Notes: generated by a model from the sequence alone, not told the origin. A stretch of DNA of 64,000 bases from Myripristis murdjan (GCF_902150065.1 NC_043996.1:24796745-24860744); one strand, 5' to 3'; positions 24,847-47,096 are shown, numbered from the stretch's first letter. A program made the numbers and translations.

Positions 24847-26625
24847 TTAAATGTACAGTCCGTCCTCCATGGTGCCTTTTGATCGAGTGTGAGAGCCTCG
24901 GCGGGTGGGGTCGTGCCCTCTCTCCCTGTCACTGCCTCTCCTGTCTCTCTCCCTCCGCTGACTCGCCCTGCCGCCGCCGCCCTCAAACTGCATCCTCATG
25001 CTCTCCACTTTGCTCCCTCGTTTCTCCTCCCCTCGCTCCCGTTGGCTCCTCCCTGCCGCTCTTTCGTTGTGTGGCGCCGCCCCTCTCGTGTGCGAGCTCC
25101 TCTTCGCGTCCGATTCCTCCCCCCGTCTGTCCGAACGCTCTCTCCTCGCCGCGGCTTCGTGACTCCGCGATGTCTCTTTCCTCGCCTGGCCCCCCACTTC
25201 TGCTTGTTTCAAGTCTCTTTCCGTCTCTCTCTTTGATTCGCTGCCGTGCTTCTCGTCCTTACTTGCCCTTTCCGCCCTGCAGTCCCTCGCTGGAGCCTTC
25301 TCGGTCCGTCTCTCCTCGTCTCTCTGGTTGCTTCCTCTCGTTTCATCTTTGCTCCGTCTCTCGCTCCTTTCCTTCGTTCTGTCTTTCTCACTCCTGCTGC
25401 CGTGCCGGCTCGAGCTCCCTCTCTCCGCCTCTTTTTCCTTCCTCTCCCGGTCGGCTCCGTGCCGATCTCGATCCCTCTCGCTCGTCGCTCTTTCGCTCTC
25501 CGTGCTGCTCTTCCTCATTTCGGCTCCTCTGTCGCTCCTCGCCCTCTCTGGATCCGCCTTTCCGCTCCAGCTTTCTCTTTTTGGGCCGCCCGACCTGCTT
25601 TTAGCTCGCTCCTGGTCTTTTTCGTTCGTGCTCTTTTCATCCGTCTCTTTCCTCTTCTCTTCTGTCCTCTCCCTCTTGCTAGTTGTGTGTTTTTCCTTTT
25701 CCCGCTTACTCTCGTTTTTCTCCTTTTCGGTGTTCATTTGATTATCCGTTTCTTTCTCCTCCTTCCCTCCTTTGTCAGGTCGTTCCTTGGAACGCTTCTC
25801 CTTGTTTTCTTTCTCAGATTTGACACTCTCACTCTTCTCCTGTTTATTTTCATCCGGTAGCCTCTTCAGCTTGGACTCAGATTTACCCTCCATGATGCCT
25901 TCTTCCTTCTTGCTCTCCTTCTCTCCCTCTACCTTAGCATCCTTTTCTCCTTCCTCCTGTGCTTTCTCCCTCTCCTTAGCCCCTTTATTCTCTGACTCTG
26001 CTTTATCATTCTTGCTCTCCTTCTCTTTCCCCTCCTTCTTGCTCTCCATAGGTCCTTTCTCCTTCATCTGACTCTTCTTTTGCTCCTCCTCGACCTTTTT
26101 GTCCAGTTTCTCCTCCAGGAGGTCCAGCTCCTGCTCCAGCTGAGCCAGCTTCACCGGGTCCGATTCCAAATCGTCTTCCACCTCCACCTCCACCTCCTCG
26201 ATTTCCTCATACTCCTCCACCTCGATGCCGTCCATGGTCTTCTGCAGCTGAGTCTTCACTTTGTTTAGCTCCAGGAGGCCATCTTGGAGGTCTTTACATA
26301 CTTCACGGATCTTGGTAGCGAACTTGGTTTTGGCGCCCTTGCGGAGCTCGTGGGAGTCCTTGGCCAGGAAGAAGACGTCCAGGGCGAGGAACAGGGCTGA
26401 CATGACGCCCGTGGTGACGCTGATGGCCTGGGCGGCTTTGGCGGCGCCGCCCGCCGCGCCGAGGACCTGCACGGTGCTGATGAGCTTGTCGGTGTTGATC
26501 ATCAGGGCCTTGCCGGCTCGACCGCCCTCCTTCATCACGTGCTTGATGTTGTGGTTCAGAGCCTTCTTGGCCGCGCTCTCTGAGTACTTCTCAAAGTCCC
26601 ACTCCTGCAGGGTGTCCATACCTTC
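24847..26625 (-). CDS. ApoL-like gene A terminal exon: C-terminal half of the apolipoprotein-L domain followed by a ~430-aa E/K/R/S/D-rich low-complexity tail, with stop codon
   Basis: Acceptor 'cccctgcag|GAAGGTATGGAC'. The upstream frame is closed by TGA, so the intron is required. The translated sequence GMDTLQEWDFEKY...ALMINTDKLISTVQVLGAAGGAAKAAQAISVTTGVMSALFLALDVFFLAKDSHELRKGAKTKFATKIREV aligns with gene B and with the ApoL family. The tail is rich in EKEK, RERS and RDRDR runs. Confidence 0.7.
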   Translation of the reverse strand, partial: EGMDTLQEWDFEKYSESAAKKALNHNIKHVMKEGGRAGKALMINTDKLISTVQVLGAAGGAAKAAQAISVTTGVMSALFLALDVFFLAKDSHELRKGAKTKFATKIREVCKDLQDGLLELNKVKTQLQKTMDGIEVEEYEEIEEVEVEVEDDLESDPVKLAQLEQELDLLEEKLDKKVEEEQKKSQMKEKGPMESKKEGKEKESKNDKAESENKGAKEREKAQEEGEKDAKVEGEKESKKEEGIMEGKSESKLKRLPDENKQEKSESVKSEKENKEKRSKERPDKGGKEEKETDNQMNTEKEKNESKREKEKHTTSKRERTEEKRKETDEKSTNEKDQERAKSRSGGPKRESWSGKADPERARSDRGAEMRKSSTESERATSERDRDRHGADRERKEKEAERGSSSRHGSRSEKDRTKERSERRSKDETRGSNQRDEERRTEKAPARDCRAERASKDEKHGSESKRETERDLKQAEVGGQARKETSRSHEAAARRERSDRRGEESDAKRSSHTRGAAPHNERAAGRSQRERGEEKRGSKVESMRMQFEGGGGRASQRRERDRRGSDRERGHDPTRRGSHTRSKGTMEDGLYI

Positions 26626-26834
26626 CTGCAGGGGACAGAGAGGACGAGAGGGTCAGGACACTCTCAGACAGAAAGAAACGCGCCATTTTTGATGCATCTG
26701 TGTTTGTAGTTTGAGATGATGACACATTTGGCTACATGTGATGCTTGAATCTGATATAAGTGACTCATAATGGAGAAACGTCTGTGCTGCTTTGCTCCAT
26801 AAAAGCAAATATGCTTTTTTGTCATTGCCAGTGT

Positions 26835-26935
26835 GAAGATAAGATATAAGATAAAATATTCCTTTATTAGTCCCACAGTGGGGAAATTTCAAGCATTACA
26901 GCAGCAAAGTGGATAGCAAAATATGAAGCACTGCT
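26835..26935. repeat. Copy 1 of a dispersed repeat family ('gataagata...ttcctttattagtcccacagtggggaaatttcaagcattacagcagcaaagtggatagcaaaatatgaagca')
   Basis: About 95% identical to the copy at 31540-31650. Both copies lie in introns and both begin with a (GATAA)n microsatellite. Confidence 0.7.
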
Positions 26936-27644
26936 CGTTTTCCTCTATGGTCCTAGCCATTCATGCCAAAATGGCAGCGACCCGCACTACATAGATTGAA
27001 ATAGCTTAATCTAAACCCACAAAACACTTTGGCTCTTCATCTTATGTGAGCTGCAGATATGGCAAAGGTACACACATTATTAACTAAAGCAAAGGTACAG
27101 AGACTTGTGTAAAAAAAAAAAAGACTGGTAAAAGTAGCATACTGCTTCAACTTCTTTACTCAAGTAAAAGTAAAAAGTACAGGCTCTGAAATGAAAGTAT
27201 AAAAGTAAAACGTAGCCCTTTACGAGTATTGCTCCAGCCCTTTTTTCGACAACCGGCTGTTTCTGTTAATTATTAGTGGGGTAATAGCATAAGTGCAAAG
27301 CGACCTGAACCTCACATCACATTAATACAATTGCTGTGTTACATCTGTTGAGTGTGATATGCAAGGATGGATACATCATGGGATTTGGGGTGAAATAGGT
27401 CTTGAAGTTGTGAAGGCATGCAAAGCAAAATAAAGGTAATTGATAATTGCCTTTGAATGCATTAAGACTAAAATAGGAAAGCCTGTTTTGAAAATGTAAG
27501 GAATAGATAGTACAGATATTTTTTGTAAAAATGTAGGGAGTAAAAGTAAAATGTTGTAAGAAAAATACATACTGAGATGTATATTTTACTAAATAATCTT
27601 TAATATCAAAAAACTGTTTAAATACAAGTGTAAAAGCTCCTCAC

Positions 27645-28060
27645 CTGTACGAACTCCAAACACTCCCTGATGTCACTGATCTCCTCCTGGTAGCCCTGGA
27701 TCATCTTCTCCACCTTCTTACGATCCATGTTGGAGTGAACCGTGTCTGTGATGTTGGCCGTCGCCGAGGTGATGCTGCCGGCGGTCGCCACGCCGATGCC
27801 CACCGCTGTGACGATGACCGAGGCGCCGAAGGTGAAGGGCGCCAGGATGAGGCCCGTGATGGTGGCCACGCTGCCCGCCACGCTGGCCACCCCTCCCCCC
27901 ACAGCGGCCGTCACCGTCCTCTTGTGGAACTGGTCGGCGGCGTCGGCCTGGGCCAGCAGCTCCAGGATGCGGTGCTGTAAGGACGCCCCCCGCTGGTTGA
28001 AGAGACGCACAAAGAGCCGGGCTGCCATGAACACACGGTCTGCAGCCTGCTCCACCGCCC
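27645..28060 (-). CDS. ApoL-like gene A exon: N-terminal half of the ApoL domain (AVEQAADRVFMAARLF...TVTAAVGGGVASVAGSVATITGLILAPFTFGASVIVTAVGIGVATAGSITSATANI...ECLEFVQ)
   Basis: Acceptor 'tctccag|GGCGGTG' is homologous to the gene B acceptor. Donor 'gtacag|gtgagg'. The Gly/Ala-rich membrane-insertion hairpin is typical of apolipoprotein L. Confidence 0.7.
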
Positions 28061-28067
28061 TGGAGAG

Positions 28068-28102
<35 letters not shown>

Positions 28103-29488
28103 GCTGCGAGGCCTGACATCTCAGAGCAATGTGGTGTAATTAAATCGCACTGTAATGAACTAGAGGAAATTTTGGAAACTCAAACATTTTCAACTCCTGG
28201 AAAGCTCTTCAAAAACAGAAACATCCATAATGTCTTTGAAACATGAAATGTCAAGGTTACCTGCTGATGGAGCTGATAAATGAGGAGTTCATTTGCAAAA
28301 ACAGATTTCTCCATTTCAATTTATTAAACCTTTTTAAACTTTTTTGAGTTTTTTTTAAAATTTACTTTATATTTATTTCTATTTTTTATATGTTTATTTA
28401 GTCTGGCATAATGTTTATTATCCTAAATCATGCTTTGTGTGTGTGTGTGTGTGTGTATATATGTGTGTGTGTACTCCAAGCAGTATCGGTGAAAAAGGTG
28501 TATTCATTTTAAGAATGGCTTTTATCTGTTTTTGCAAATGAACTCTTCAAATATATCTAACACATCTGACTATGTTTTATCGTTCTTTTATTGAGTCTGT
28601 TATCACATTTTCCTTTATCTGTTGGTTTCAATCCTTGAAGGTTAAACAGAGAAACATACTTTACAGGGTTGTCAGTGTTAGCAGCAAAATCATGGGGTCT
28701 GCACAACAAACTCTACAAGAGCTCTACAACAAACAACTTATGAAGAAAGCAATCTCCGTCCTGTCTGACGGCTCTCATCCTTTACACCAGCCGTTCCAGT
28801 TTTTACCATCAGGTTCACTACTCAGACTCCCACTTGCAAAAACAAACAGATATAAGCGCTCCTTTGTACCCTCCGCTGTTTCTCTTTTAAATAACAGGAG
28901 GAAAAGGTAGCTGGGTGGAATAGTCTTCCTAACTTTAAAATGATCTCTCTAATTCGAGTGATCATTTATTTATTTATTTTTATTTTTATTTATTTATTTT
29001 TTTCTATAATGTGCATTTGGAATTATCTATAATGTGCACTTGGAATTGTAATTTACTATGTCATGTGTATTTGTTTACTTTGTTGTGTGTGCTTCCTCTG
29101 TTGTGAAACTAATTGCCCCACTGGGGACAAATAAAGATATTGATTGATTGATTGATTTTCTGATTATACAATTTTACAATTTTACAATTTTAAAATATAT
29201 AAATGAATATAAATGTCTCATGAGATCGCTATGCCTGTGCACAGCGAGACCTGGGACGTTCAAATTAGTTATTTAACGAAACTTTCAACACTGAAGTTGA
29301 CAAACACAGGTCATGGAAATATACTCAAAGTATAAAAAGTGGTAGAACAAGATTAGCACAAAGTAAACCTGGAACGAGGTTTCTTAAAATCTAATCTGAC
29401 ATTCATGAGCATGAATGCCACCTCATGGCAGGATTTCCTAAATGGCAAGTTAAAAAAAAAAAAAAAAAAAAAAAGATGCCCCACTTAC

Positions 29489-29540
29489 ATTTCCTCATCC
29501 TCCTCCTGAAAATTGGATGTTTCATTCCACTCGGTCCAGC
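29489..29540 (-). CDS. ApoL-like gene A small 5' exon (GWTEWNETSNFQEEDEEM; 52 nt)
   Basis: Acceptor 'ctgttaccag'; donor 'aaat|gtaagt'. It has the same 52-nt length and phase as the gene B homologue at 58890-58941. Confidence 0.55.
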
Positions 29541-29773: not shown

Positions 29774-29813
29774 CTTCGACCGATTTCCACCAGTCCATCA
29801 AGCCGTCGTTTTC
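29774..29813 (-). CDS. ApoL-like gene A small 5' exon (ENDGLMDWWKSVE; 40 nt)
   Basis: Acceptor 'cctctcag'; donor 'gaag|gtgagt'. It is paralogous to the gene B exon DVEGLMDWWNTVE (also 40 nt). Confidence 0.6.
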
Positions 29814-29929: not shown

Positions 29930-29931
<2 letters not shown>

Positions 29932-30004
29932 CCTCAGAGTCCAGCGGGTTGCCCTCAGTAGGATAAGCTGCCATCTCCACAGGCTGGATCTCTACTGTGC
30001 TCTC
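29930..30004 (-). CDS. ApoL-like gene A 5' exon (ESTVEIQPVEMAAYPTEGNPLDSEE; 75 nt, phase 0)
   Basis: Acceptor 'ttttccag'; donor 'gaggag|gtgtgt'. The TVE[IM]QPV motif is shared with the exon at 31201-31263. Confidence 0.5.
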
Positions 30005-31200: not shown

Positions 31201-31263
31201 CTGTGTTGTGTTCACGGGCTGCATCTCCACAGTCTCCTCGAGAATCGGCAGCTTGTCAGAACT
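31201..31263 (-). CDS. Linker exon (SSDKLPILEETVEMQPVNTTQ; 63 nt, phase 0) between the repeat array and the ApoL exons
   Basis: Acceptor 'cctcccacag'; donor 'acacag|gttaga'. Confidence 0.4.
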
Positions 31264-31899: not shown

Positions 31900-31962
31900 C
31901 TGAGTGTTGAAGTTAAGTTTGGGAATTCTGGGAAGAGTTTTCTTGACTCGGAAAGAGACAAC
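31900..31962 (-). CDS. Linker exon (VVSFRVKKTLPRIPKLNFNTQ; 63 nt, phase 0)
   Basis: Acceptor 'ctccttcag'; donor 'actcag|gtatcg'. Confidence 0.4.
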
Positions 31963-32276: not shown

Positions 32277-32351
32277 CCGTCTCTTCTTCTTGATGGTCCT
32301 CCGGCGCCTCAGCTGACTGCCGCCCTCTGGTGGCTCCATGTCCTCACTGTC
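32277..32351 (-). CDS. Linker exon (DSEDMEPPEGGSQLRRRRTIKKKRR; 75 nt, phase 0; basic NLS-like run)
   Basis: Acceptor 'ctccatcag'; donor 'gacgg|gtgagt'. Confidence 0.45.
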
Positions 32352-33135: not shown

Positions 33136-33195
33136 CTGCTGCTCCACTGCTTTAGGAGTCCTCCTGAACATGCCAGCGAACCCCGTTTTCTTTTC
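33136..33195 (-). CDS. Repeat-array exon, basic type (EKKTGFAGMFRRTPKAVEQQ; 60 nt)
   Basis: Acceptor 'ctgacacag'; donor 'cagcag|gtacga'. Shares the motif family [QE]EKGG.FSG.FKK.PK. Confidence 0.5.
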
Positions 33196-33734
33196 CTGTG
33201 TCAGAAACACACGAGGCGGTAAGACAGCGGGCATGCAGACGTGCTGGGAAAATCAAGTGGGATCACTGTGCTCGACTCACTTTTGAGGCGCCTGTCGCTT
33301 CAATCAGATTATCGGTGCTGGCTGACAGTTCACTTTGTGCTAAAAGATTGTCCTAAAAAAAAAAAAAAAAAAAAAAAAAACAAAGAGGAAAAAAGGCTCA
33401 TTTTTAAGCTTCTGTGTTGTCGGCTATCATACAGTGATATTAGGCACATTTTGGGCAGGGGAGAAGAGAAATGATTTCAGCAAAAGGCAAGAAAGAAAGA
33501 CACAAAGCTTCCTGAAGGTCACGAGTTGTTCCTGTGATTAAAATTGCTTGTGGTGATAATACACAAGGCACTTTAGGCAAATTAGAGAGAAAAAAAAATA
33601 GGCCTAAGATGCATTTTTATGGTTCCTGGCAACATGATGTTTTTTATATGAGTGAAGCCACAGTGACGAGGCGGTTCTCGTGCACGGTGTCCTGCCGGTA
33701 TTACCCGACATGGTGGCCCTCAGGTCGCTCTCAC

Positions 33735-33797
33735 CTTGGCGATGTCGGTGAGGCTGTCCCAGCTGGCCGACAGCTCCCTCGAGTCGCTGAGAGGATC
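33735..33797 (-). CDS. Repeat-array exon, acidic type (DPLSDSRELSASWDSLTDIAK; 63 nt)
   Basis: Acceptor 'ttttcccag'; donor 'gccaag|gtgaga'. Carries the LSAS.DSL motif. Confidence 0.5.
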
Positions 33798-34920
33798 CTG
33801 GGAAAAAAACAGCAGGGGTGTTAGACATCACATGTGGGCTGCATTATATTTATATTATATTTTCTAGTTCTGTTTATATTATATATACACTGTTTACATT
33901 TATATAGGCTGTTTATATTTATTACATATACGGTTTATAGTTTATACATGCTGTTTATATTTATACATATTGTTTACAATTGATATATACTGTTTATACT
34001 TATATATTTTATATTTAAATTTTTTTTTCTTTTCCTATTTTTTTTTTTTTTTTTTTTGTTACCTTGCTTTATTTATTTATTTAGGCTTATACTGGGACCT
34101 GAGTCCTAATTTCGTACCATTAACGTGTAAATGTGAGCTGGTATGACAATAAAGTTCCTTGAATCCTTAAATCCTTGATGGCTGTTGTTTTTTTCCCAAG
34201 AAAGCCTGAAGCGTGTGGCGCTGAAGCCAAACACGAAAATGACAAGGTGGAGCGTAGCACTCACACAGTCAGTAGCGGTTTTAGGCACGGGCGAAGCGGG
34301 CAGCCGCCCGGGGCGGCATATATTCATGTCACGTGGGGGGCGGCATGAGAGCAAAAAAAAAAAAAAAATCATCCTCGCTGCAAAGCAGTTTTCTATGACC
34401 GTATTCATCTGCATATAAGACAATATTTTTTCCATTGAAAATGCCCCGAAAAAACGCCCTCGTCTAATATTGGGGTCTAAGCAAACACACATGTATTGTG
34501 CTTGCATATAAACCAGTAGGTGGGCTCGCCTGATACCGCAATTACCGGCGAATGGCCGCATTGCGCAGTCAATAATCAACCATGTTGTCTGTGTCATTGT
34601 CCGCTGTGCTGCTGCAGCCGCGTATGAACAAAAGTTGATTTATAATGAGAGGATGGCAGTATGTGTGCGCCGCTCACCTGTCAGATCCGGCAGACCTGAC
34701 CGGGTGGGCGCGGCACCTGTAGGCATCAAGCCGGTGCCGCGACCGGCCCGCCTGATGCTGACCAGTGGCTTTTTTTTATGCAAACAAGATTTTGTTCATA
34801 TAAAAAGTATTTTTCCAAAAAAGGTATTTGTGCAGGTGTTGGCGCCCCTGCTCTGGGAGGGGCGCGTCTAGCCGCCAGAGGGGCACCGGTAACGGCCGTT
34901 ATCGCTTGGAAGTCCTCGCC

Positions 34921-34950
34921 TTGTGCGCGCGCGCGCGCGCGCACGCGCGG
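34921..34950. repeat. (GC)n dinucleotide tract 'gcgcgcgcgcgcgcgcgcacgcgcgg' (Z-DNA-prone) inside a GC-rich island
   Basis: Seen directly in the sequence. The flanking region 34250-35000 has far higher CpG density than the surrounding introns. Confidence 0.8.
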
Positions 34951-35448
34951 GGCTAGAACGGTAGGGCGCAAGACAGTAATTTCGCCCAGGGCGGCAACAT
35001 GGGCAGAACCGCCACTGCACACAGTTTAGAAACATATTACATAAACCTCAATTACAACATGATTTATTTGGTCATATCAGTGAAAATAATGCACCGACTT
35101 GATCTAGATGGCCTTTATTAGGACATAATGGTATAAGTGAGGTCCTGCATCTTTTTGCTTTATTTTCTGTTTCAACCTGCTTCAGTTATTTGCACATACT
35201 ATTTGACCCTGGTCTGGTTAGCATCTGCTTCTCAGATGGGAGCACAACAAGGGGTCTGAGATGTTTTTTTAAATTTTTAGTTTAAAAAATATGAGTCAGG
35301 CATAATAACTAAAACAATTAGTCTTTGCTAAGGTAGGTAAGGTCTACAAATTGAAATTGAAATTACAATTGAGAAATATCATCAGTATTAGGTTGTTATT
35401 TCAGACACTGATGGGGCTCGGTTGCACCTCTTTTTGTTTTTTTTAATA

Positions 35449-35484
<36 letters not shown>

Positions 35485-35621: not shown

Positions 35622-35668
<47 letters not shown>

Positions 35669-35777: not shown

Positions 35778-35781
35778 CTGA

Positions 35782-36536: not shown

Positions 36537-36590
36537 TGTTCTCCGACAGGCTGTCATTGCTTGCAAAGAGCTCTTTGTCCTGAGACAGAG
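36537..36590 (-). CDS. Repeat-array exon, acidic type (DKELFASNDSLSENISTK; 54 nt)
   Basis: Acceptor 'tgtctcag'; donor 'actaag|gtacga'. Confidence 0.55.
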
Positions 36591-36665
36591 AAGTGAACTC
36601 AATTTCAGCACATAAAAATCACAGAGGTGACGCTGTATGAGTGAATATGACACCAGACGCACGCT

Positions 36666-36737
36666 CACCTGACCAGCAGCCTCTTCTCCAGAGGCTTTGG
36701 GTGTTTTCTTGAGGAGTCCGCTGAACAGCCCTCCTTT
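36666..36737 (-). CDS. Repeat-array exon, basic type (EKGGLFSGLLKKTPKASGEEAAGQ; 72 nt)
   Basis: Acceptor 'tgttcaccag'; donor 'ggtcag|gtgagc'. Confidence 0.55.
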
Positions 36738-37013
36738 CTCCTGGTGAACAGAGAGAGGGGTTAGACTAGGGAAAAAAAAAACAAGTAAATTTAATGCGAA
36801 TTCTGAAATTCCCATTAAACTGTGGTGAGGTCAATCAAAAAATTCCAACCAACAGTATATTGCAGATTTTGAACAGTCCTTGCATTAAGATAAAAGCGCC
36901 TTTCGTTAAGTCCCGCCCCAACATCCAGTTTCAACAGGATTTGAATCAAATTCAAGGAAGCAAGATGCTTTTTCAGTCCTGCTCCAGGCCGTGACGTGTG
37001 ACACTGACCTCAC

Positions 37014-37076
37014 TGTCAAACAGGTCGTCAGTGCTGGCGGACCTCTTGAATATGCCGGACAGGCCTCCCTTCTTCT
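37014..37076 (-). CDS. Repeat-array exon, basic type (EKKGGLSGIFKRSASTDDLFDSE)
   Basis: Acceptor 'ctgttttag'; donor 'agtgag|gtcagt'. Confidence 0.45.
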
Positions 37077-37401
37077 CCTAAAACAGACACTTCAGTTATT
37101 TCAGAAAACTTAATGTTCGCAAAAACAAGAGGAAAACGGGTTCAGCGTGGTTTCCACCATCTGATCAGAACCACAAAGCAGATTTAACTCATTTTGCTAC
37201 TGAATTATGAGGATCCCTTGGGAAAGGTAATGAACTGTGAACATAGTAATACAATAATAAGAACATAATGTTAAGCTTTATGAGCAGTTTAAGAGCAATG
37301 CAAGATTAAAGTAAAATTAAGATAATATTAAAACAGAAAAATAAAAGATGCAAGAGGGAAGATCTTCTATAAGACCAAGCTGAGAGAAAAATGAGAATGA
37401 A

Positions 37402-37473
37402 CCTTGGGGACGGTGGTTTGTATGAGATTCTCACAGCTTCCAGAGATCTGCTCTCGGCTGCTCTCCTCCAGCT
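37402..37473 (-). CDS. Repeat-array exon, acidic type, copy 4 of the tandem unit (ELEESSREQISGSCENLIQTTVPK)
   Basis: Acceptor 'ggactcag'; donor 'ccccaag|gttcat', which is a weak donor. Confidence 0.4.
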
Positions 37474-37561
37474 CCTGAGTCCAGACAGAAAAAGGTGAAC
37501 ACACAAACGCTCGGTCCTCAGGATACAAATAATGAGAGTTTTAAAAACTGTGGTCAAATAC

Positions 37562-37630
37562 CTCGTCTGTTGTGGCTCCATCAGCTGGTTTCTGTGGCTT
37601 CTTAAACATGTTGCTGAAGATGCTTTTCTC
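37562..37630 (-). CDS. Repeat-array exon, basic type, copy 4 of the tandem unit (EKSIFSNMFKKPQKPADGATTDE)
   Basis: Acceptor 'catgtttcag'; donor 'gacgag|gtattt'. Confidence 0.5.
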
Positions 37631-37924
37631 CTGAAACATGACAGAAATGATTTGAACAAAAAGGTTTTCTCATTTTATCTACAAGAGCGCATTCAGGTAT
37701 CAGGAAAGGCAAAAAAATGATATTTTAACATCTCTACTATAAACACAGTGAAGCAATGTAAACAGAATTATCATCTCATATTGTCTGTTTCATGTTGCAT
37801 ATTTTTATGGGAAGCATCTTTGGGTCTCTTGAAATCCCCTATGTAAATTTAAATTCTTCTTCTTCTTAATATACTCTTATCTCTACATGATCAGGTGTTA
37901 ATATTCACAAAGAAAGACAAAAAT

Positions 37925-37995
37925 GAGAATGAACCTTGGGGACGGTGGTTTGTATGAGATTCTCACAGCTTCCAGAGATCTGCTCTCGGCTGCTC
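37925..37995 (-). CDS. Repeat-array exon, acidic type, tandem copy 3
   Basis: Near-identical to 37402-37473 and sits inside the ~535-bp tandem unit. Confidence 0.4.
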
Positions 37996-38103
37996 TCCTC
38001 CAGCTCCTGGGTCCAGACAGAAAAAGGTGAACACACAAACGCTCGGTCCTCAGGATACAAATAATAAGAATTTAAAATTAAAATTAAAATTTTTGTTCAC
38101 ATA

Positions 38104-38173
38104 CCTCGTCTGTTGTGGCTCCATCAGCTGGTTTCTGCGGCTTCTTAAACATGTTGCTGAAGATGCTTTTCTC
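38104..38173 (-). CDS. Repeat-array exon, basic type, tandem copy 3 (EKSIFSNMFKKPQKPADGATTDE)
   Basis: Carries the same flanks as 37562-37630. Confidence 0.5.
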
Positions 38174-38458
38174 CTGAAACATGACAGAAATGATTTGTAC
38201 AAAAGGTTTTCTCATTTTATCTACAAGAGCTTGTTCAGGAATCAGGAAAGGGAAAAAATGATACTTTAACATCTCTACTGTAAACACAGTAAAGCAATGT
38301 AAACATTATCATTATCATCTCCTATTGTCTGTTTCACGTTGCATGTTTTTATGTAAAGCATCTTTGGGTCCCTTGAAATCCGCTATGTAATGTTATTATT
38401 ATCATCACTACACTCGTATCTCTACATGGTCAGGTGTTTATTTTCACAAAAAAATGAG

Positions 38459-38530
38459 AATGAACCTTGGGGACGGTGGTTTGTGTGAGATTCTCACAGC
38501 TTCCAGAGATCTGCTCTCGGCTGCTCTCCT
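38459..38530 (-). CDS. Repeat-array exon, acidic type, tandem copy 2 (ELEESSREQISGSCENLTQTTVPK)
   Basis: Tandem-unit copy. Confidence 0.4.
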
Positions 38531-38627
38531 CCAGCTCCTGAGTCCAGACAGAAAAAGGTGAACACACAAACGCTCGGTCCTCATGATACAAATAATGAGC
38601 AACTTTTAGATTTGGTTCACATACCTC

Positions 38628-38696
38628 GTCTGTTGTGGCTCCATCAGCTGGTTTCTGCGGCTTCTTAAACATGTTGCTGAAGATGCTTTTCTCCTG
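38628..38696 (-). CDS. Repeat-array exon, basic type, tandem copy 2
   Basis: Tandem-unit copy. Confidence 0.5.
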
Positions 38697-39004
38697 AAAC
38701 ATGACAGAAATTATTTGAACAAAAAGGTTTTCTCATTTCATCTACAAGAGCTCATTCAGGTAACAGAATCAGTATTGGAAAGGGAAAAAAATGATATTTT
38801 AACATCTCTACTATAAACACAGTGAAGCAATGGAAACAGAATTATCATCTCATATCGTCTGTTTCATGTTGCATTATTTTATGGAAAGCATCTTTGGGTT
38901 TCTTGAAATCCGCTATGTACATTTAAATTCTTCTTCTTATTATCATCACTACACTCTTATCTCTGCATGATCAGGTTTCAGTATTCACAAAAAAAAAGAC
39001 AAAA

Positions 39005-39076
39005 ATGAAAATGAACCTTGGGGACGGTGGTTTGTATGAGATTCTCACAGCTTCCAGAGATCTGCTCTCGGCTGCT
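39005..39076 (-). CDS. Repeat-array exon, acidic type, tandem copy 1
   Basis: Tandem-unit copy. Confidence 0.4.
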
Positions 39077-39176
39077 CTCCTCCAGCTCCTGAGTCCAGAC
39101 AGAAAAAGGTGAACACACAAACGCTCGGTCCTCATGATACAAATAATTAGAATTTTAAAAACTGTGGTCAAATACC

Positions 39177-39245
39177 TCGTCTGTTGTGGCTCCATCAGCT
39201 GGTTTCTGCGGCTTCTTAAACATGTTGCTGAAGATGTTTTTCTCC
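39177..39245 (-). CDS. Repeat-array exon, basic type, tandem copy 1 (EKNIFSNMFKKPQKPADGATTDE)
   Basis: Tandem-unit copy with one substitution (S to N). Confidence 0.5.
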
Positions 39246-39339
39246 TGAAACATGCCAGAAATGAATTTGAAGGTGTGACTGAAAAGTGCCTGTCTGGTCA
39301 TTTTACCTGCAGGAGCTCGTCACAAAGCGACTCACTTTA

Positions 39340-39405
39340 CTGCTGCTGTTCTCAGACAGGTTGTCCCTGCTGGACGAGAGCTCTTTCTGGGCGTCTTTGT
39401 CCTGA
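39340..39405 (-). CDS. Repeat-array exon, acidic type (DKDAQKELSSSRDNLSENSSSK)
   Basis: Acceptor 'ctgtttcag'; donor 'agtaaa|gtgagt'. Confidence 0.5.
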
Positions 39406-39490
39406 AACAGAGAAATTTGTGTCGGATGAAACTGTGAGGAAAGTGAACGGAGGCTTGGACGGCGCCTTTATAATCACAACGAGTCTCTCA

Positions 39491-39561
39491 CCTGTGAATC
39501 GGCCTTTTCTCCAGGCGCTTTGGGGGTCTTTTTGAGGAGCCCGCTGAACAGCCCGCCTCTC
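39491..39561 (-). CDS. Repeat-array exon, basic type (ERGGLFSGLLKKTPKAPGEKADSQ)
   Basis: Acceptor 'tgcaccag'; donor 'tcacag|gtgaga'. Confidence 0.55.
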
Positions 39562-39676
39562 TCCTGGTGCACAGACAAACAAATATTTACATATCAAAAG
39601 GTGAATTATCAAATGGTCATTTTACTGAAACAAATGAATCACAAACCCAGTTCATTTAGTCTGAAACCCTGACCGA

Positions 39677-39736
39677 CCTTGTTGTCAGATAAACTCTCAT
39701 TGCTGGCAGAGAGCTCGCCATGCAGAGACTCCTTAT
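39677..39736 (-). CDS. Repeat-array exon, acidic type (DKESLHGELSASNESLSDNK)
   Basis: Acceptor 'ctacag'; donor 'aacaag|gtcggt'. Confidence 0.5.
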
Positions 39737-39892
39737 CCTGTAGAAAAATAAATAAATCACAAATAACCATGAAACTTGCAGTAATAGCAAATGTTATGCA
39801 GTCAAGACTCAGTAAAAATGACAAAAATTTGGAAATAAATGGAGTTGCTGCTGTAAACAGTGTCCAAGGAAAAATGCTGCAATTATGATTTA

Positions 39893-39933
<41 letters not shown>

Positions 39934-40084
39934 CCACTGCTTTTTCCACTCAAAACAACACAAACAGTGTAAATGAGGATACAAACTATGAAGGATGAAA
40001 AATGACAAAACAATAAACAAATGAATAAATAAATAAATACACATATATAAATGCACGAATAATTAAATTAATAAATATTTCTAC

Positions 40085-40345
40085 ATGTATTTATTTATTT
40101 ATTTCTGTTTTTATTCATGCATTTATTTATTTATTTGTGTATTTATACATTTATGCATGTATGTATTTATTTATTTCTACATTTATTTATTTATATATTC
40201 ATTTATTTATACATTTATTTATTTATTTGTGTATTTATATATTTATTTTTACATTTATTTATTTAGATTTTTATTTATTTATACATTTATTCATTTATTT
40301 ATTCCTTCATGTACATTTATTTATTTATTCCTACATTTATGCAGT
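40085..40345. repeat. Low-complexity (TTTATTTA / TTTAC)n tract of about 260 bp
   Basis: 'tatttatttatttctgtttttattcatgcatttatttatttatttgtgtatttatacatttatgcatg...' It creates spurious Leu/Ile/Tyr/Phe ORFs (40085..40429 and 40137..40439). Confidence 0.85.
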
Positions 40346-40644
40346 CAAGAACAAACAAATTTCCAAACAAAATTTGGAAATAAATGGAGTTGCTGCTGCA
40401 GTGTCCAGGGAAAAATGCTGCAATTATGATTTAAAATAAATAAATAAATAAATAAAATCCACTGCTTTTTCCACTCAAAACAACACAAACAGTGTAAATG
40501 AGGATACAAACAATATAAAGGTTGGGATAACAGAGGAGGAGGGGTTCTTTTGAAAATGAAACCGAAATAGAAACAATGCAGTGTAACAGTTTATCTTTAT
40601 AACTGAGCACTGCTCCAGACAGCGGACCAGAAAAATGTACTTAC

Positions 40645-40698
40645 CTCTTCAGGTTTAGGAGACCTCCTGAACATTGCACTGAATATTCCTCCTTTCTC
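40645..40698 (-). CDS. Repeat-array exon, basic type (EKGGIFSAMFRRSPKPEE)
   Basis: Acceptor 'gtgtttcag'; donor 'gaagag|gtaagt'. Confidence 0.55.
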
Positions 40699-40787
40699 CT
40701 GAAACACACACACGATGAGGGTTATCTTGGGGAAATGTGAAGCTGATCAGTGTAAATTGCAGGTAAAAGGATGCAGGTAAACTCACG

Positions 40788-40853
40788 GTGGTGCTGTTCT
40801 CACACAGACTGTCGCTGCTGGCTGAGAGCCTGCCGTCTCCGGGCTGCTTGTCC
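40788..40853 (-). CDS. Repeat-array exon, acidic type (DKQPGDGRLSASSDSLCENSTT)
   Basis: Acceptor 'cctgtcag'; donor 'accacc|gtgagt'. Confidence 0.5.
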
Positions 40854-41089
40854 TGACAGGAGATCACATCAGTCAGGAATTTTTACCCACAACAGCTAAA
40901 AATGGCCTTCCACTTAATAATTACAACAGTCTCTTAAGGTTTATTTAAACAGGGAAGCACAGAAATTTCTCAAGGATGCCTTGCTCAAGAGCAGGAGTAA
41001 AGAGAGTTAGTCATTCAGTTACTGTAAAAAATAATAATAATAATAAAAAAAATAAAATACTGTAATGAAAGTAGAGGTGAAACTGCACA

Positions 41090-41164
41090 CCTCCTCTGTG
41101 TGAGGATCATCTGCGAGTCGGGACGTCTTCTTCAACTTTACGCCGAACACGCTTCCTTTCTCCT
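41090..41164 (-). CDS. Repeat-array exon, basic type (EKGSVFGVKLKKTSRLADDPHTEE)
   Basis: Acceptor 'gtgtttcag'; donor 'gaggag|gtgtgc'. Confidence 0.5.
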
Positions 41165-42370
41165 GAAACACCAAGGAGCTGCTCAGTTGAATTAATTGAA
41201 ATGTACCTGAATTAAAGCTACATTTTCCCCTTTTTAAATGGGTAAAAAACTGGTAAAAAAAAAAAAAAAAAAAAAAACAAGGCCAAAAACGACTGAGGTG
41301 TTTACCACTTACTGCTGTGCTTCTCACTTCTGTCTCCTTTATGGAAATTTGATTTAAAAATCTGTATCCTTTACCAAATCAGTATCATTCCACCTTATAA
41401 CCACAAACAAATGAGATCATTGTGGAGGAGACCATCAACCGCTCTGCTGTATTTCAAATCATTTACCACCAGGCTTCAGATTTCATGAGAAAACTGCTTT
41501 AGGGCACAAAAACAGAGAAGCGGGATCTGTTCTTAAAGGGAAAACATGAATTTCAGTTTTATGCGATGGTGGATTAAGTGAAAGGCTGATGGTGGAAAAA
41601 AATCACTTCAAACATGTCGATCCTCTTTAAAACAGGATAAAAATGCACACCAGGAAACGAGACCCTTCTTGCTGTTGACTGGCAGCAACATCACAAAGGC
41701 TCATGGGAAGTGTAGTTTTCATTTTGAAAGACAGAATCATGGACTGCACGTGTGGCCTGAGATATAGAGACTTCAAACACTACATAAGTACCATCTTTGA
41801 TGAAAACTGACTGTGTTTCAAACAAATCACATTTCTGTTAAGCAGTGTTGTCTTTAACTTGTCGCATTACATTCATCTGTAACGCAGTAATGTAACATGT
41901 TACCGTTCCTTAATCCATTAATCACATTACAGTTACAAATCAAACAATTGTGGTGTTTCTTGAGCTACATAAGTTCTCTGCATAACAGGTGGGAGAGACG
42001 ACAAAATGACAGAGCGGTCTACAACTTCTGAGGTGCGGCCATCTGCACATTACTGAGAACTTGTTGAACTGAGGTATTAATTATTAAAGAGCATCAAAGA
42101 GATAATTTGTGTATGCCCTTTACATTAAGATGGAGATTTGTGCTGATTCGTAGGCAGATGTAAGGTTTATCATCACACTGTTAACTGGCAGAACATGAAG
42201 ATGCAGCTCAGGTGATGTTGTGGAGTAACACAAATAATGTACTTTCCACAGGTGGTAACTAAGAAAAGCAACGCATTACTTTTTAAAACACTAACGAGTA
42301 ATGTGTACAATACATGACATTACAACAGTGGTTTTTAGACGCACGGGTTTCTGACGGTGGCAGTGACTCA

Positions 42371-42443
42371 CCTTGGTGTTGCTGCTGCTCTCAGACAGGC
42401 TGTCGCTGCTGGCAGAGAGATCTTTCTGAGCAGAGAGATTCTC
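42371..42443 (-). CDS. Repeat-array exon, acidic type (ENLSAQKDLSASSDSLSESSSNTK)
   Basis: Acceptor 'ttgtttcag'; donor 'accaag|gtgagt'. Confidence 0.55.
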
Positions 42444-42700
42444 CTGAAACAAAACGACAGCGGAGTAAATCATAATCATAAATCATCAAAGTGAGGTGAA
42501 AGAGCGGTCAACATCCACGAAGGAAACTGCTCCAACAGCTCATGGTCTGTCATGTTGTGAAACCCCTTCGCTCAGTGTTGGATCTATACAGAGCAGCAGC
42601 TGTTTCTGAGAGAGTGAGAAGCTGTGTGGTTTGTTTGGACGGTCTGCAGAAAAAAAACGAACCGTTCTGCTGTGTTTGTGGGATGCAGACCCACCTGCGC

Positions 42701-42762
42701 CTCTCCGGGGGCTCGGGGCGTCTTCCTGAGGAGCCCGCTGAACAGCCCGCCTCTCTCCTGTG
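42701..42762 (-). CDS. Repeat-array exon, basic type (ERGGLFSGLLRKTPRAPGEAQ)
   Basis: Acceptor 'agccacag'; donor 'gcgcag|gtgggt'. Confidence 0.5.
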
Positions 42763-43026
42763 GCTGAAAACACAGCACAACAGCTTTAAAGCACTCAGAC
42801 GACTTACGCTCCTGAATTTCAAAGGTAACGTCATTTTTCCAGCCACGGCCCCAGACAGGTTTCAGGGGAAAAAAAAACAAAACAAAACCACCACCAGAAA
42901 AAGAAAAAAAAAAAACAATCCACCCCCGGGTCTATTTTCATGTTCGTCACAGTGACTCATCAGGTTTCTGTGGGTGTCTGGTTAGTTTTCTGAAAGTTTA
43001 AACACAGCTTTGTAATTTAGACTTAC

Positions 43027-43087
43027 TTTGCTCTCTGACAGACTGTCATTGCTGGCAGACAGCTCGCTGTGCAGCGACGCCTTATCC
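43027..43087 (-). CDS. Repeat-array exon, acidic type (DKASLHSELSASNDSLSESK)
   Basis: Acceptor 'ttttgcag'; donor 'caaag|taagtc' (boundary ambiguous by ±1 nt). Confidence 0.45.
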
Positions 43088-43929
43088 TGCAAAAAAAAAA
43101 AAAAAAGAAGAAGAAGTTAGCAAACATGAGTAAACACAACAAACACCGACAAACATGACACTGATAACGGAGGCAGACAAACAGGGATGAATTCTGGGTA
43201 AAATAAGACTTGACTGAATGGCACTCGGCAGGAAACTCACTCTGTAATTTCCTTGATATAAGTTTTTTAATGCCAGAATTTATTCATTTATTTATGGTTC
43301 TCCTTATTCTTGTGTGAATGATATTGCTAATAGTGTTGTAATATACAGAGGACACTGTTTTTGTTTTGTTTGTTTGTTGCTGCGACTTTCCCTTTCAATA
43401 AAATTTAAGTCCTGAAATAAATGACAGTATAATTACAGTAAAATTAGAATAATTTCATTGATTCATCTCTGTTTATCTCAATCAGTCAAGATGTGTAACA
43501 GTACTGATGGCATAGATTGACATTTCACCTGAAATGAGATTAGATTAGATACAATTAGATGAGAATAGATTAGATTAGATTAGATTAATTGACACTTTTA
43601 TGATTCTAGTGGTGCAATTGGGCCCCAGCATTGGGAAACAGTTAATAATAAAATAATAAAATAATAATAAAATTACAAAGGAATAGAACAAATGGCAGTT
43701 ATTTAAAAATATAAAACTGACGCATCAACACTCATTTTATATTAAAGTATGTAAAAAAAAAAAAAGTCAGCATGAGGCTTGCCAAAGGCTTGCCCTGTTC
43801 AAAATCATGCATCTTGTAGGAATGAAACTCCTTTCTTAAAAAAAAAAAAAAAAAGCGATTTAAGTTAGAAAACGGAGGATGAGCACAGCAAGTCAAAAGT
43901 CGGGGCTAAGGACAAACGTTTCCAGTCAC

Positions 43930-44002
43930 CTCGTCTTGTTGGGGGGCTTCAGACGTTTTGGGCGTTTTCTTGAACATTCCTCCGAACACACTTCCTTTCT
44001 CC
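43930..44002 (-). CDS. Repeat-array exon, basic type (EKGSVFGGMFKKTPKTSEAPQQDE)
   Basis: Acceptor 'gttcattag'; donor 'gacgag|gtgact'. Confidence 0.5.
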
Positions 44003-44150
44003 TAATGAACAGAAAAAAAAACTGGGTGTCTGTTTGGCTCTAACTTCTTTGTAAAGACGAGACAGGGATGTGTAAAGCTGCAAAAATCTGATTAAACTGT
44101 TTGTTATACGGACAGTGATGAACTGAAGGATCTGGATGCTCTCTGTACCT

Positions 44151-44210
44151 TGTTGTTGCTGTTCTCATTCAGACTGTCGCTGCTGGCTGACAGCTCACTC
44201 TGCTTGTCCT
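44151..44210 (-). CDS. Repeat-array exon, acidic type (DKQSELSASSDSLNENSNNK)
   Basis: Acceptor 'gtgtttcag'; donor 'aacaag|gtacag'. Confidence 0.55.
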
Positions 44211-44512
44211 GAAACACAAATCAGAAAAAAAAAACAGTTGAGTCAAATGAGACAGATATGACAAATCGATGTATTTATGCCATTTCAGTGGTTTATGATT
44301 TGATCAATCAATGGAAATCCACCCTTTGGTCCAATCAGCAACAAGAACAGCATCATTAAATCTGGACCAGAGGTGTTACAGTCAGCTTTAAATTGTGAGT
44401 CAGCTACAATGCATCTACATGCTATGTTTTTTGGCATAGAAGTTACTATCACACTATCACACTTAAATCTCCATCGCCCCCATGTGTAGATTTCTCTGTC
44501 ACACACACATTA

Positions 44513-44586
44513 CCTGCCCAGGTGTCACCTCTCCAGGTGGCTTGGGAGACTTGCGAAGGATCCCGCTGAAAAATCCCCCCTTTTCC
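44513..44586 (-). CDS. Repeat-array exon, basic type (ERGGFFSGILRKSPKPPGEVTPGQ)
   Basis: Acceptor 'gtcagcag'; donor 'gggcag|gtaatg'. Confidence 0.5.
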
Positions 44587-44688
44587 TGCTGACATCACAC
44601 CAGTTAGTTGTATTAGCAGAAGCCGTTACACAACAATATGAGCATAATCCCATGAATTCACAGATGAATACTTCCAAACGCACCTTTG

Positions 44689-44751
44689 AGGTTTCAGACA
44701 GATTGTCGCTACTGCCCGACAGATCGCTGTGCAACGACTGCCGGTCCTGAG
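44689..44751 (-). CDS. Repeat-array exon, acidic type (DRQSLHSDLSGSSDNLSETSK)
   Basis: Acceptor 'gtctctcag'; donor 'tcaaag|gtgcgt'. Confidence 0.55.
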
Positions 44752-45574
44752 AGACAAAACGAACAGAGTCAGTACAAACATCAGGCAACAAGATTTGTCC
44801 AGTGATACTTGACCTTTTTGGCTCTGCATGAATAACTGAATTTTAATAATTTAACAGCTGATGACACAAACGCAGGCAGCTTGACTCATTCAGATTCAGT
44901 GAAAATCACGACTTTTCAAGCAAAATGTAACTGGGCAGATACACAAAGAGCTTTTTTGTGATAAAGATAATATTCAACAACATTTCTGGATAAGGATTTT
45001 TTTTCGATTTTCTCCTGTTTTTTTGCTCTTATGTATAGGCTATGTTTTGAAGGGGATGCAGTTTATTGCAACCATTACTCTGGTGTGGCCGGCAACACTC
45101 TGCGGCCACTGAATCACCGTCATTTCACAACCACAGGAAAGATTAGTCAGACACACTTCTGTCACGACATCGAACTACACATGCTGTCAAAAAGATTTGT
45201 TTAGTCCCAAAAGCTGCAACGCCTGTCAAGCGATGGTAAAATGACCAATGGGACGGCTGTGAAGACATTAAATGAACTTGGATATATAGACATACAGACA
45301 GACAGATGCACTTTATTGATCCATAATGCAACATTGCACAGGGATAATAATAAAGGCTGCACATATATGCCTTTCAGCACTAGAAGAGAGAAATAAATAT
45401 CTTTAGAAAAGTAAATACAACAAAGAACAAAATAAAATAAAGTAGGTCAATGCAAAGAATATGAGAAAAAAAAACTTCTCATACCTTATAAGAGTAATAA
45501 AATAAGTTAAACATACTAAAATATATGTATAGGTTATCTATAAAGCATTCAGTGAACGTCATTACCTCTTCAGG

Positions 45575-45647
45575 TGGAGCGGCTTCTGTTGTTCTGGGAG
45601 ATTTCTTGAACATCCCACTGAATATTCCTCCTTTCTCCTGAGGCAGA
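45575..45647 (-). CDS. Repeat-array exon, basic type (EKGGIFSGMFKKSPRTTEAAPPEE)
   Basis: Acceptor 'ctgcctcag'; donor 'gaagag|gtaatg'. Confidence 0.55.
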
Positions 45648-45764
45648 CACACGAAATAACTGTTTTTGTCAGGTGAATGACGGCCTGCATGTTTTTATGT
45701 CTGCACTATAATGACTTGCATTATCTCGGCTCTCATGTCAGGTAAATGTGGAGCTGCTCACCTT

Positions 45765-45823
45765 GCCGTTGTTCTCCGACAGGCCGTCGCTGCCGGCTGC
45801 CGGCTCGCTCAGATCCTCCTGAA
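45765..45823 (-). CDS. Repeat-array exon, acidic type (EDLSEPAAGSDGLSENNGK)
   Basis: Acceptor 'ctgcttcag'; donor 'ggcaag|gtgagc'. Confidence 0.5.
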
Positions 45824-45994
45824 GCAGCAAACATCAGTAAAATGAAATAAACACAGGCGGAAATATTTATTGCTATACATTGTGTGGTGGAAGACTTTAT
45901 CCAAAACACCTCATGTTACCAGATAAAAAGGCATTTTCAGCGTTTTAGTTTCAGAGGGTGGGAAGAAATCACTGTTGGGTCTAGTTCACCTGTG

Positions 45995-46060
45995 CAGCCG
46001 CCTCATCTGCTGGTCTGTGGGATTTTTTCAGAATGCCAAAGAAGCTTCCTTTCTCCTGCA
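45995..46060 (-). CDS. Repeat-array exon, basic type (EKGSFFGILKKSHRPADEAAAQ)
   Basis: Acceptor 'ctctgcag'; donor 'gcacag|gtgaac'. Confidence 0.5.
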
Positions 46061-46809
46061 GAGGGAGAAAAAAATTGTTTTCAACACGTTTTTAAAAGTG
46101 TTGCATAAAACACAACACTTGACGAGTGTCCGAATGTCTATCATGAGTAGAATCAGACCCATAAATCTGGAGTTTATGCCCTGACTGATACACCCAGAAC
46201 CGCATCACATGAACAACTAAATCTGATATTTGATCCAACATGGATTCACATCTACATTCTCATTGATTTTATTTATTTTATTGTCATTACAAACTTAATT
46301 GTGCTTATTTTAGGATCATCATTTATCCCTGGTTTCTATGCACTTCCATATTTTTTGTACTTTTAAATCCAAGAGTTTGCACCTTTAGTGGCATTGTGTT
46401 TGTTTGACATGAGATCATTATGTATTTGCCTTTAATTTAATCATTTTTTATATTTGCGTTTGTATATGTGGTCATTTCCTTTACTCAAATTTCATCTGCT
46501 TTATGTGAGTTTATTTCTTTTATGCGTGCTTGACATCGAGTTACATGGTGCACATTTTTTATTTTTATTCTGTAAATCCTTGAACCTGGAAAGGACTTTT
46601 GCTTGAGCTTGAAAAGTGCAATATAATTAAAAAATACTATTATCATTATTATAATATAGATTCAGATGTACATTGTCATTGCACACCCTTCATATTACAC
46701 CAGCTGACAGACGCTGGTCAGTTTTTTATTAATTTGCATGATTATTTGACTGCGTCTCAAACTGAACTACAACAAGAGAAGCCGCTGAAACAAAACCTAC
46801 ATGTGTGTG

Positions 46810-46869
46810 TTCAGATGTTTTCTCCTCTGCGTCATCGGCGTCACTGTCCACTGTGCTGACCTGGCAGAC
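46810..46869 (-). CDS. Candidate array exon, divergent acidic type (VSTVDSDADDAEEKTSEHT)
   Basis: Acceptor 'gtctgccag'; donor 'acacat|gtaggt'. Weaker match to the family. Confidence 0.3.
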
Positions 46870-47007
46870 ACAAAAAAATAACATTGACATGAGTCCAGAA
46901 TATTCTGTCAGCAGCAGATTCAGAAACGAAGCACTGAGAGGAAAAGGGTTAGTGAGAGCAAGAACGAGACCGGGAGTGAAATTAAATATCAAACGACGGA
47001 GAGAGCC

Positions 47008-47096
47008 GATGTTACCGTCACTGCAGGAGACGGAGCTTTCTCTTTCTCTTTGGGTGTTTTCCTGAACATCCCGGCGATGAGGCCTCCTTTGTCCTG
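47008..47096 (-). CDS. Repeat-array exon, basic type (DKGGLIAGMFRKTPKEKEKAPSPAVT)
   Basis: Acceptor 'tgttccag'; donor 'tgacg|gtaaca'. Confidence 0.4.

Follow-up and report, generated by a model that had tools for sequence, protein, structure and literature searches.

Short exons of symmetric phase can be duplicated in tandem or skipped without a frameshift, as in titin PEVK and the 54-bp exons of the fibrillar collagens. Mammalian APOLD1, in turn, is a protein of about 280 aa, without an array of alternating repeat modules or a long charged tail. Here we describe a locus at which an array of short exons lies upstream of an ApoL domain, in a 64,000-nucleotide stretch of the genome of the fish Myripristis murdjan (GCF_902150065.1 NC_043996.1:24796745-24860744). 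This whole stretch is called the window, and positions are counted from its first letter. In its short introns, its microsatellites and the kinds of gene present, the window has the character of teleost genomic DNA. By comparison with annotated proteins, the region very probably holds one minus-strand protein-coding gene, the ortholog of teleost apold1a (si:rp71-1g18.13 in zebrafish). There is equally strong reason to expect that in M. murdjan this single gene is expressed as a long mRNA joining the array, built of modules of two types (A and B), to the ApoL domain.

The window gene shares with mammalian APOLD1 (VERGE) and APOL1-6 the Pfam ApoL domain, in which hydrophobic insertion segments are followed by a heptad-leucine segment. 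Membrane-insertion segments and heptad leucines are given as properties of the ApoL family in passages of PMC7891394 and PMC11726835. In fish, 'apold1a' is an annotation name, and the relation to mammalian APOLD1 considered here is the common ApoL domain. The likeness to titin PEVK and collagen is one of analogy only, with no sequence relationship, and unlike those proteins the window array alternates two module types.

The closest systems are the fish proteins annotated as apold1a, such as NP_001025308.2/LOC560271 of zebrafish, the 'claspin-like' P0121 of mackerel and P0123 of Dissostichus eleginoides. Their ApoL domains are 60-93% identical to that of the window gene, and they share with it the junction motifs RRRTIKKKRR, VVSFRVKK, VEMAAYPTE and LMDWWxxVEGWxEWNE as well as alternating A/B modules upstream, in a conserved exon order. 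The longer percomorph and Polymixia models (P0121, P0122, P0128, P0129 and P0150) share the N-terminus MExCMxKPEVKKKPKPPKPPPKP, and P0004 and P0014 share the acidic/leucine-heptad segment and the charged tail ending DGLYI. Cyprinid apold1a is much shorter (~670 aa), has degenerate repeats and starts with MSRRSD... instead. Proteins named 'apolipoprotein L1-like' (Amphiprion P0127) and apold1b (Lampris P0114) follow the same plan of A/B-type array, spacer, LMDWWxTV and ApoL, and the combination of array and ApoL spans the teleosts from eels (P0135) to percomorphs.

An array fused to an ApoL domain and a charged tail had been put forward as a novel architecture in the original prediction, an earlier reading of this DNA from its sequence alone. 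It is instead the standard plan of the teleost apold1a, apold1b and 'apolipoprotein L1-like' groups. The disordered A/B array, ApoL domain and charged tail are already annotated as standard for teleost apold1a, and the window carries a somewhat larger array. Compared with the retrieved apold1a orthologs, the window gene has the most repeat modules, with three extra copies of one A+B pair. A literature search by gene names and symbols returned no paper discussing these fish genes, nor, among the top-ranked papers listed, one on their repeat array.

Identity of the locus and its orthologs

A 530-aa query, running from the end of the array through the junction into the ApoL domain, gave hundreds of teleost matches named apold1a, si:rp71-1g18.13 or apold1b. 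The best was Lampris incognitus P0001 (93% identity), and the top matches ranged over 59-93% identity with E values from 1e-242 down to 1e-156. Many of the matched proteins are 650-850 aa long and cover 95-99% of the query, so that repeat modules, junction and ApoL occur together in them. When the array alone was used as the query, the matches were proteins of ~1,000-1,180 aa, nearly all of which carry PF05461. These similarities place the window gene in the teleost apold1a / si:rp71-1g18.13 orthogroup.

The order of the parts within the proteins agrees. In a global alignment, Scomber scombrus P0121 and the model are identical at 757 of 1106 aligned residues with no rearrangement, and are colinear from Met1 through the first ApoL-domain exon, where the P0121 model ends. 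Colinear N-terminus, array, junction and ApoL in one polypeptide are also found in P0123, P0183 and P0135. More widely, the order N-terminus, A/B array, RRRTIKKKRR/VVSFRVKK, VEMAAYPTE, LMDWWxxVEGWxEWNE, ApoL and charged tail recurs in single predicted proteins of many teleosts. At the DNA level, Dissostichus sequence L003 keeps the order of window exons E38-E50 and E54 (37009-37077 down to 29930-30004, plus the last exon).

Array and ApoL in one mRNA of other teleosts

Transcript-derived sequences from two fish groups join the array to ApoL. The zebrafish RefSeq protein NP_001025308.2 (P0239) contains degenerate A/B repeats, the junction and ApoL, and a RefSeq NP_ accession denotes a model based on an mRNA record. 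A zebrafish Logan contig assembled from an SRA run (L004; 2,254 nt, intronless) holds an uninterrupted 669-aa open reading frame (ORF) identical to NP_001025308.2, and such a frame means that the contig can only be cDNA. In salmonids, Logan contig L001 (4,743 nt, SRR10006208) is near-identical to Oncorhynchus protein P0125. Its single ORF runs through array modules, RRRTIKKKRR/VVSFQVKR, VEMAAYPTD, the WW motifs, ApoL, the charged tail and a stop, and is followed by a 3' untranslated region (UTR). Comparison thus shows that, in other teleosts, splicing joins the array and ApoL within one mRNA. The central proposal of the original prediction, a single transcription unit for the array and ApoL gene A, is strongly supported by comparison with the ortholog proteins, the zebrafish and salmonid mRNA contigs and the exon order in Dissostichus.

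Gene model

The predicted gene has 54 coding exons, all on the minus strand, with a coding sequence of 5,580 nt for 1,859 aa from an ATG at 53121 to a stop at 24847; the modelled coding region spans at least 28.3 kb. Every exon of the model has its splice sites, and joined together they read as one open frame. In order, the protein would consist of a Pro/Lys-rich N-terminus of 228 aa, 35 mini-exons (778 aa), six junction exons, a two-exon ApoL domain and a charged tail of ~450 aa.

Several limits set by the original prediction had to be moved. It had closed the unit at 47096, a position that includes the acceptor cag; the first array exon begins at 47093, and eleven more coding exons lie upstream of it, reaching ~6 kb beyond the array. 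The orthologs P0121 (mackerel), P0122 (Anableps) and P0129 (Syngnathoides) start with MESCMMKPEVKKKP..., ~240 aa upstream of the equivalent of the exon at 47093, which argued that the gene does not start there; the upstream exons were then located in the window. The first coding exon (53074-53121) encodes MEQCMVKPEVKRKPKP, with donor gtgaga, and was found by tblastn with the N-termini of P0121, P0122 and P0129 together with splice sites and the ATG at 53121. Its peptide agrees with the Polymixia P0150 N-terminus, MEQCLMKPDVKKKPKP. The 5'UTR and promoter upstream of 53121 lie outside the mapped model. Exons 2-6 (52518-52544, 52298-52366, 51265-51318, 51020-51097 and 50699-50758) and 7-11 (50542-50589, 50392-50457, 49090-49167, 48513-48563 and 47667-47771), likewise placed by tblastn and splice sites, are all phase 0. 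Together the eleven N-terminal exons encode the 228 aa, in the same order as in Scomber P0121 and Polymixia P0150.

A scan for motifs and splice sites placed the array, 35 phase-0 symmetric mini-exons, at 33136-47093. It is followed by four phase-0 junction exons (32277-32351, 31900-31962, 31201-31263 and 29930-30004), identified from splice sites and colinear in orthologs, and by two of compensating phase (29774-29813, 40 nt; 29489-29540, 52 nt), identified from splice sites. All six are present and colinear in P0001, P0002, P0004, P0121, P0123 and P0183, and the Dissostichus DNA keeps the same order. The first ApoL-domain exon (27645-28059, 415 nt; splice sites and Pfam PF05461) contains the hydrophobic stretch VGGGVASVAGSVATITGLILAPFTFGASVIVTAVGIGVATAGSITSA. 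The last coding exon (24847-26625; open frame and Pfam), ending in a TAA stop at 24847-24849, encodes the second half of ApoL, the acidic/leucine-heptad segment and the K/E/R-rich tail of ~450 aa with the end ...MEDGLYI. A probable 3'UTR at 23952-24846 is proposed from hexamer positions alone, with several candidate AATAAA starts (24678, 24148, 23968, 23956 and 23952).

All ten exons named in the original prediction are flanked by a minus-strand polypyrimidine tract with AG and by GT, and the chain that they form is colinear with the orthologous proteins. The lengths and phases given for the 40-nt and 52-nt pair also held, the two leaving 'AT' that the next exon completes to ATG. The continuous frame claimed from there into ApoL is open to the TAA at 24847-24849 when the ApoL exon starts at 28059 (acceptor ...ctccag|GGCGG); the start at 28060 that had been assigned to this exon breaks the concatenated frame.

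Likeness between the exons at 31201 and 29930 had been read as a sign that growth of the array was accompanied by duplication of an original 5' exon of ApoL. The zebrafish, eel, salmonid and mackerel orthologs have both exons, so that any such duplication is ancient. A tie between this duplication and array growth was also rejected at the DNA level, where the two exons share a 19-nt local match (reached in 2 of 2000 shuffles) and have dissimilar flanks.

The repeat array and its tandem units

The array exons are 54-78 nt each, and most alternate between type A, EKGG[LI]FSG[LM]FKK[ST]PK, which is basic/aromatic with a subsequent acidic end, and type B, DKxSLHSELSASxDSLSExxK, which is acidic and Ser-rich. 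The 778 aa counted here replace the roughly 1,300 residues estimated before. Exons 36526-36579, 45762-45818 and 46801-46860 belong to the modelled array, as does a conserved B-type exon at 33281-33352 that was missing from the earlier junction chain. Apart from lineage-specific duplications the array is colinear with that of mackerel P0121.

By regular-expression count the window has 19 A and 15 B modules, the highest number among the retrieved proteins, against 16 and 14 in mackerel and a median of 3-4. The sole large gap in the alignment to P0121 falls where the window has one A+B pair in three additional copies. These belong to four tandem A+B exon pairs (EKSIFSNMFKKPQKPADGATTDE / ELEESSREQISGSCENLIQTTVPK) at 37403-39244 on the minus strand, with a period of 520-551 bp, where mackerel has one copy. 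The highest module number among the retrieved proteins and this recent four-unit expansion are what is specific to the locus. As every array exon is phase-0 symmetric, exon pairs can be duplicated in tandem and so lengthen the array, as these units illustrate. Between units 1-3, pairwise divergence is 0.7-1.4% in exons and 7.7-12.8% in introns (Fisher p 1e-3 to 2e-5), a roughly 10-fold difference. Exons so much less diverged than the introns indicate that the duplicated copies are constrained, real coding sequence.

Other species carry duplications of their own. Dissostichus eleginoides L003 has three tandem copies of the EKNIFSNMFKKPQKP exon at 16014-17481, with a period of ~700 bp, and mackerel P0121 carries a different duplicated pair. 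The difference between the duplications in toothfish, mackerel and the window points to independent expansion of the array in several lineages.

Pfam scans of two array-containing segments (the first ~325 aa at E<=0.01, and the N-terminus with the first ~170 aa at E<=0.1) matched no family. Identity of module A as a MARCKS effector domain or WH2 domain was considered but is not supported, there being no Pfam profile similarity in the scanned array segments; the likeness to MARCKS (GLSGFFKKSPK vs ...LSGFSFKK..., LKKT) we take to be compositional. A match of Albula P0177 to SPAR_C (E=5e-10) was likewise set aside. It sums weak hits on the Ser-rich B motif, and since no single stretch passes it was treated as low complexity. 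One array intron holds a (TATT)n / 72-nt-period microsatellite at 40085-40329.

ApoL domain and charged tail

Gene A matches Pfam PF05461 with E=1.1e-31 and 110.9 bits against a cutoff of 25.9, over profile positions 41-297 of 298. An AlphaFold2 model of the junction and ApoL built from 26 sequences is all-helical, with a mean predicted local distance difference test score (pLDDT) of only 51 and hydrophobic segments below 50, values too low for comparison of folds. Pfam scans of the N-terminus and the tail returned no family.

The long K/E/R-rich tails of P0004, P0014, L002 and the window model (24850-24870) share the end ...[ED]DGL[YN]I, which in the window is MEDGLYI, and the C-terminus of P0183 is a similar ...CQFYI. 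Conservation of the tail end suggests a functional C-terminal motif.

In a phmmer search of PDB sequences, the gene A ApoL domain (27645-28059) weakly matched 6tao_A, 'non-hemolytic enterotoxin lytic component L1', and MakE of Vibrio, 6w08_A (E=1.2e-4, 25 bits). We take both of these bacterial proteins to be ClyA-type alpha-pore-forming toxins. The alignment is centred on TITGLILAPFTFGASVIVTAVGIG vs TIFGVVLAPFTLGGSLILAGFGV, in the ApoL hydrophobic hairpin. This likeness may reflect remote homology or convergence of hydrophobic segments. No paper linking APOL1 with ClyA was found in the literature searched.

Alternative explanations

Several observations weigh against a single gene with one long mRNA in M. 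murdjan, starting with the fact that the mRNAs in which array and ApoL are joined come from zebrafish and a salmonid, species other than this one. The alternative that survives best keeps one gene and makes the array largely optional, most transcripts skipping array exons or starting downstream, with the 1,859-aa form a maximal isoform that is rare or never made. We regard this as a real possibility, if not the favored one. Phase-0 symmetry of every array exon would fit it, since leaving out single exons would keep the reading frame and many isoforms would result. Within the repeat region, the 16 predicted zebrafish isoforms (X1-X16) differ by in-frame insertions or deletions 4 to 32 aa long, sizes that fit whole cassette exons or alternative exon ends, and they also show, beyond the first ApoL exon, a 3' exon that is alternative; for many orthologs several isoforms are listed, with numbers as high as X12. 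Donors are weak (GTTCAT) in the four duplicated B exons, which therefore need not all be constitutive. However, the mackerel, toothfish and Notothenia models hold most of the orthologous array exons together, and in the recent duplicates conservation is confined to the exons, a sign that constraint still acts on every copy.

Far less probable is a division into two genes, with an array gene ending at an intronic poly(A) site at ~30-33 kb and a separate ApoL gene transcribed from a promoter immediately upstream of the junction exons. Some annotations do read the locus in this way. In Syngnathoides it is split into P0129 (array) and P0014 (ApoL), and in Anableps into P0122 and P0013; Lampris P0001 starts late, at the Met of the equivalent of exon 33136-33195, and in Hippocampus the model P0208 terminates by read-through past the counterpart of 29930-30004. 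In the window a (GT)n tract directly follows the donor of 29930-30004, and the P0208 read-through enters the equivalent stretch. Two of the split models end by read-through into an intron, and the split points fall after the equivalent of 33136, inside those of 32277 and 31900, or after that of 29930, depending on the species. Such variation points to annotation breakage rather than to a conserved gene boundary. Moreover, the bridging exons (RRRTIKKKRR, VVSFRVKK) are conserved, in frame, and lie within the mRNA contigs that run from array to ApoL.

Polyadenylation signals were considered for the same question. The original prediction had found no AATAAA before ApoL gene A, yet ~30 sites are present on the minus strand, all inside modelled introns. 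Those at 35164, 35119, 35068, 34081, 33923, 32726, 32029, 32015, 31584 and 29742 are examples in the introns between array and ApoL exons, and those at 32726, 32029, 32015 and 31584 would suit an array gene ending there. With ~19 expected from the AT-rich base composition in 28 kb, the ~30 found are uninformative either way. In the scanned interval minus-strand AATAAA numbered 79, of which 26 come from the 40085-40329 microsatellite.

A CpG-rich segment of 0.9 kb at 34100-35000 (GC 0.49-0.57, CpG observed/expected ~1.0-1.1, including a (CG)n run) could be an internal promoter or a transposon remnant. It lies within a 1.9-kb intron of the array, flanked by exons 35706-35777 and 33735-33797, and downstream of it comes exon 33136-33195, with the Met at which Lampris P0001 starts. 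The segment occurs once in the window and lacks clear terminal repeats, and an Rfam scan at gathering thresholds gave no match to it or to any other part of the window. As a sign of a separate ApoL promoter it is weakened by its lack of a counterpart in Dissostichus L003, where the equivalent intron is only ~460 nt. CpG enrichment was also sought at 30-31.3 kb as a sign of a transcription start site, and none was found (CpG observed/expected 0.3-0.45). Given the intronic AATAAA and the CpG-rich segment, internal promoters or intronic poly(A) sites may yield shorter isoforms beside the long one.

Finally, it is most improbable that a repeat was collapsed or expanded in assembly and that the four tandem units are an artefact in place of real extra exons: ~0.5-kb tandem units at 90-94% identity are of the type that assemblers can miscount, but these differ at 8-13% of intron positions and by several insertions or deletions, enough for unambiguous assembly, and Dissostichus and mackerel have independent duplications in the same array region.

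A second ApoL gene and neighbouring features

Gene A is preceded upstream by a second ApoL gene in tandem, gene B, so the window holds two tandem array and ApoL paralogues, the second of them partial. The gene B ORF at 57751-58728 on the minus strand is the last exon of an ortholog of Amphiprion P0127, not a single-exon gene; it is 83% identical to P0127 and matches PF05461 with E=4.9e-38. Comparison with P0127 located further minus-strand exons upstream at 58889-58939 (WEDTPQDDDMTEKEEAK), 59194-59235 (QDVEGLMDWWNTVE), 60029-60106, 62681-62740 and 63220-63288, and gene B must have an A/B array of its own beyond the end of the window. The ApoL domains of gene B, which is of the apol1-like type, and gene A are only 45% identical; the spacer, N-terminus and tail differ, and the gene B domain lies in one exon as opposed to two in gene A.

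On the plus strand, an open exon of a neighbouring gene at 6056-6400 encodes an RRM domain (Pfam RRM_1, E=7.7e-14) that looks like the hnRNP C / RALY type. Also on the plus strand, and therefore opposite to gene A, is a 112-aa ORF (MFYRSFIESVITFSFICWF...) at 28572-28910, in the intron between exons 29489-29540 and 27645-28059. It has no Pfam match, presumably resembles a fragment common in fish retroelement ORFs and is probably an intronic transposon remnant.

Possible function and significance

We infer that tandem duplication of exon pairs lets the array expand and contract, and that exon skipping would allow its combinatorial use. Module A, with its Gly, bulky hydrophobic residues, KK and S/T-P, is a putative basic/aromatic motif for peripheral membrane or actin binding, and module B a putative acidic multi-phosphoserine spacer. 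The ApoL part would contribute hydrophobic insertion segments, followed by the leucine-heptad segment and the K/E/R tail. The most likely function would be that of a long, disordered, multivalent arm, probably regulated by phosphorylation, that binds membrane or cytoskeleton and is carried on a membrane-inserting ApoL domain. Since module A has no profile similarity to MARCKS or WH2, the module-binding part of this mechanism is offered as a hypothesis. A broader proposal, which we consider rather unlikely, is that teleost apold1a/apol1-like proteins constitute a protein module that has no paper in the literature searched: a disordered arm of alternating MARCKS-effector-domain-like (membrane- or actin-binding) and phospho-Ser mini-exons, growing by exon pairs under purifying selection, with combinatorial cassette splicing that tunes ApoL tethering, and with the present locus as its largest and most recently expanded member.

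Nothing found here is surprising enough to alter a field. The value for annotation is that the locus should be treated as one gene of ~54 exons and ~1,859 aa beginning at 53121, not split into an 'array gene' and an 'ApoL gene', as several public fish annotations appear to have done. The fish apold1a/apol1-like family is annotated in many teleost genomes, and no study of it was found in the literature searched. Its array at this locus shows cleanly how repeats grow when exon pairs are duplicated in tandem while constraint acts on the exons specifically, and the linkage of this long, multivalent, probably disordered arm to ApoL could inform the targeting of ApoL-family proteins, including that of the vascular gene APOLD1.

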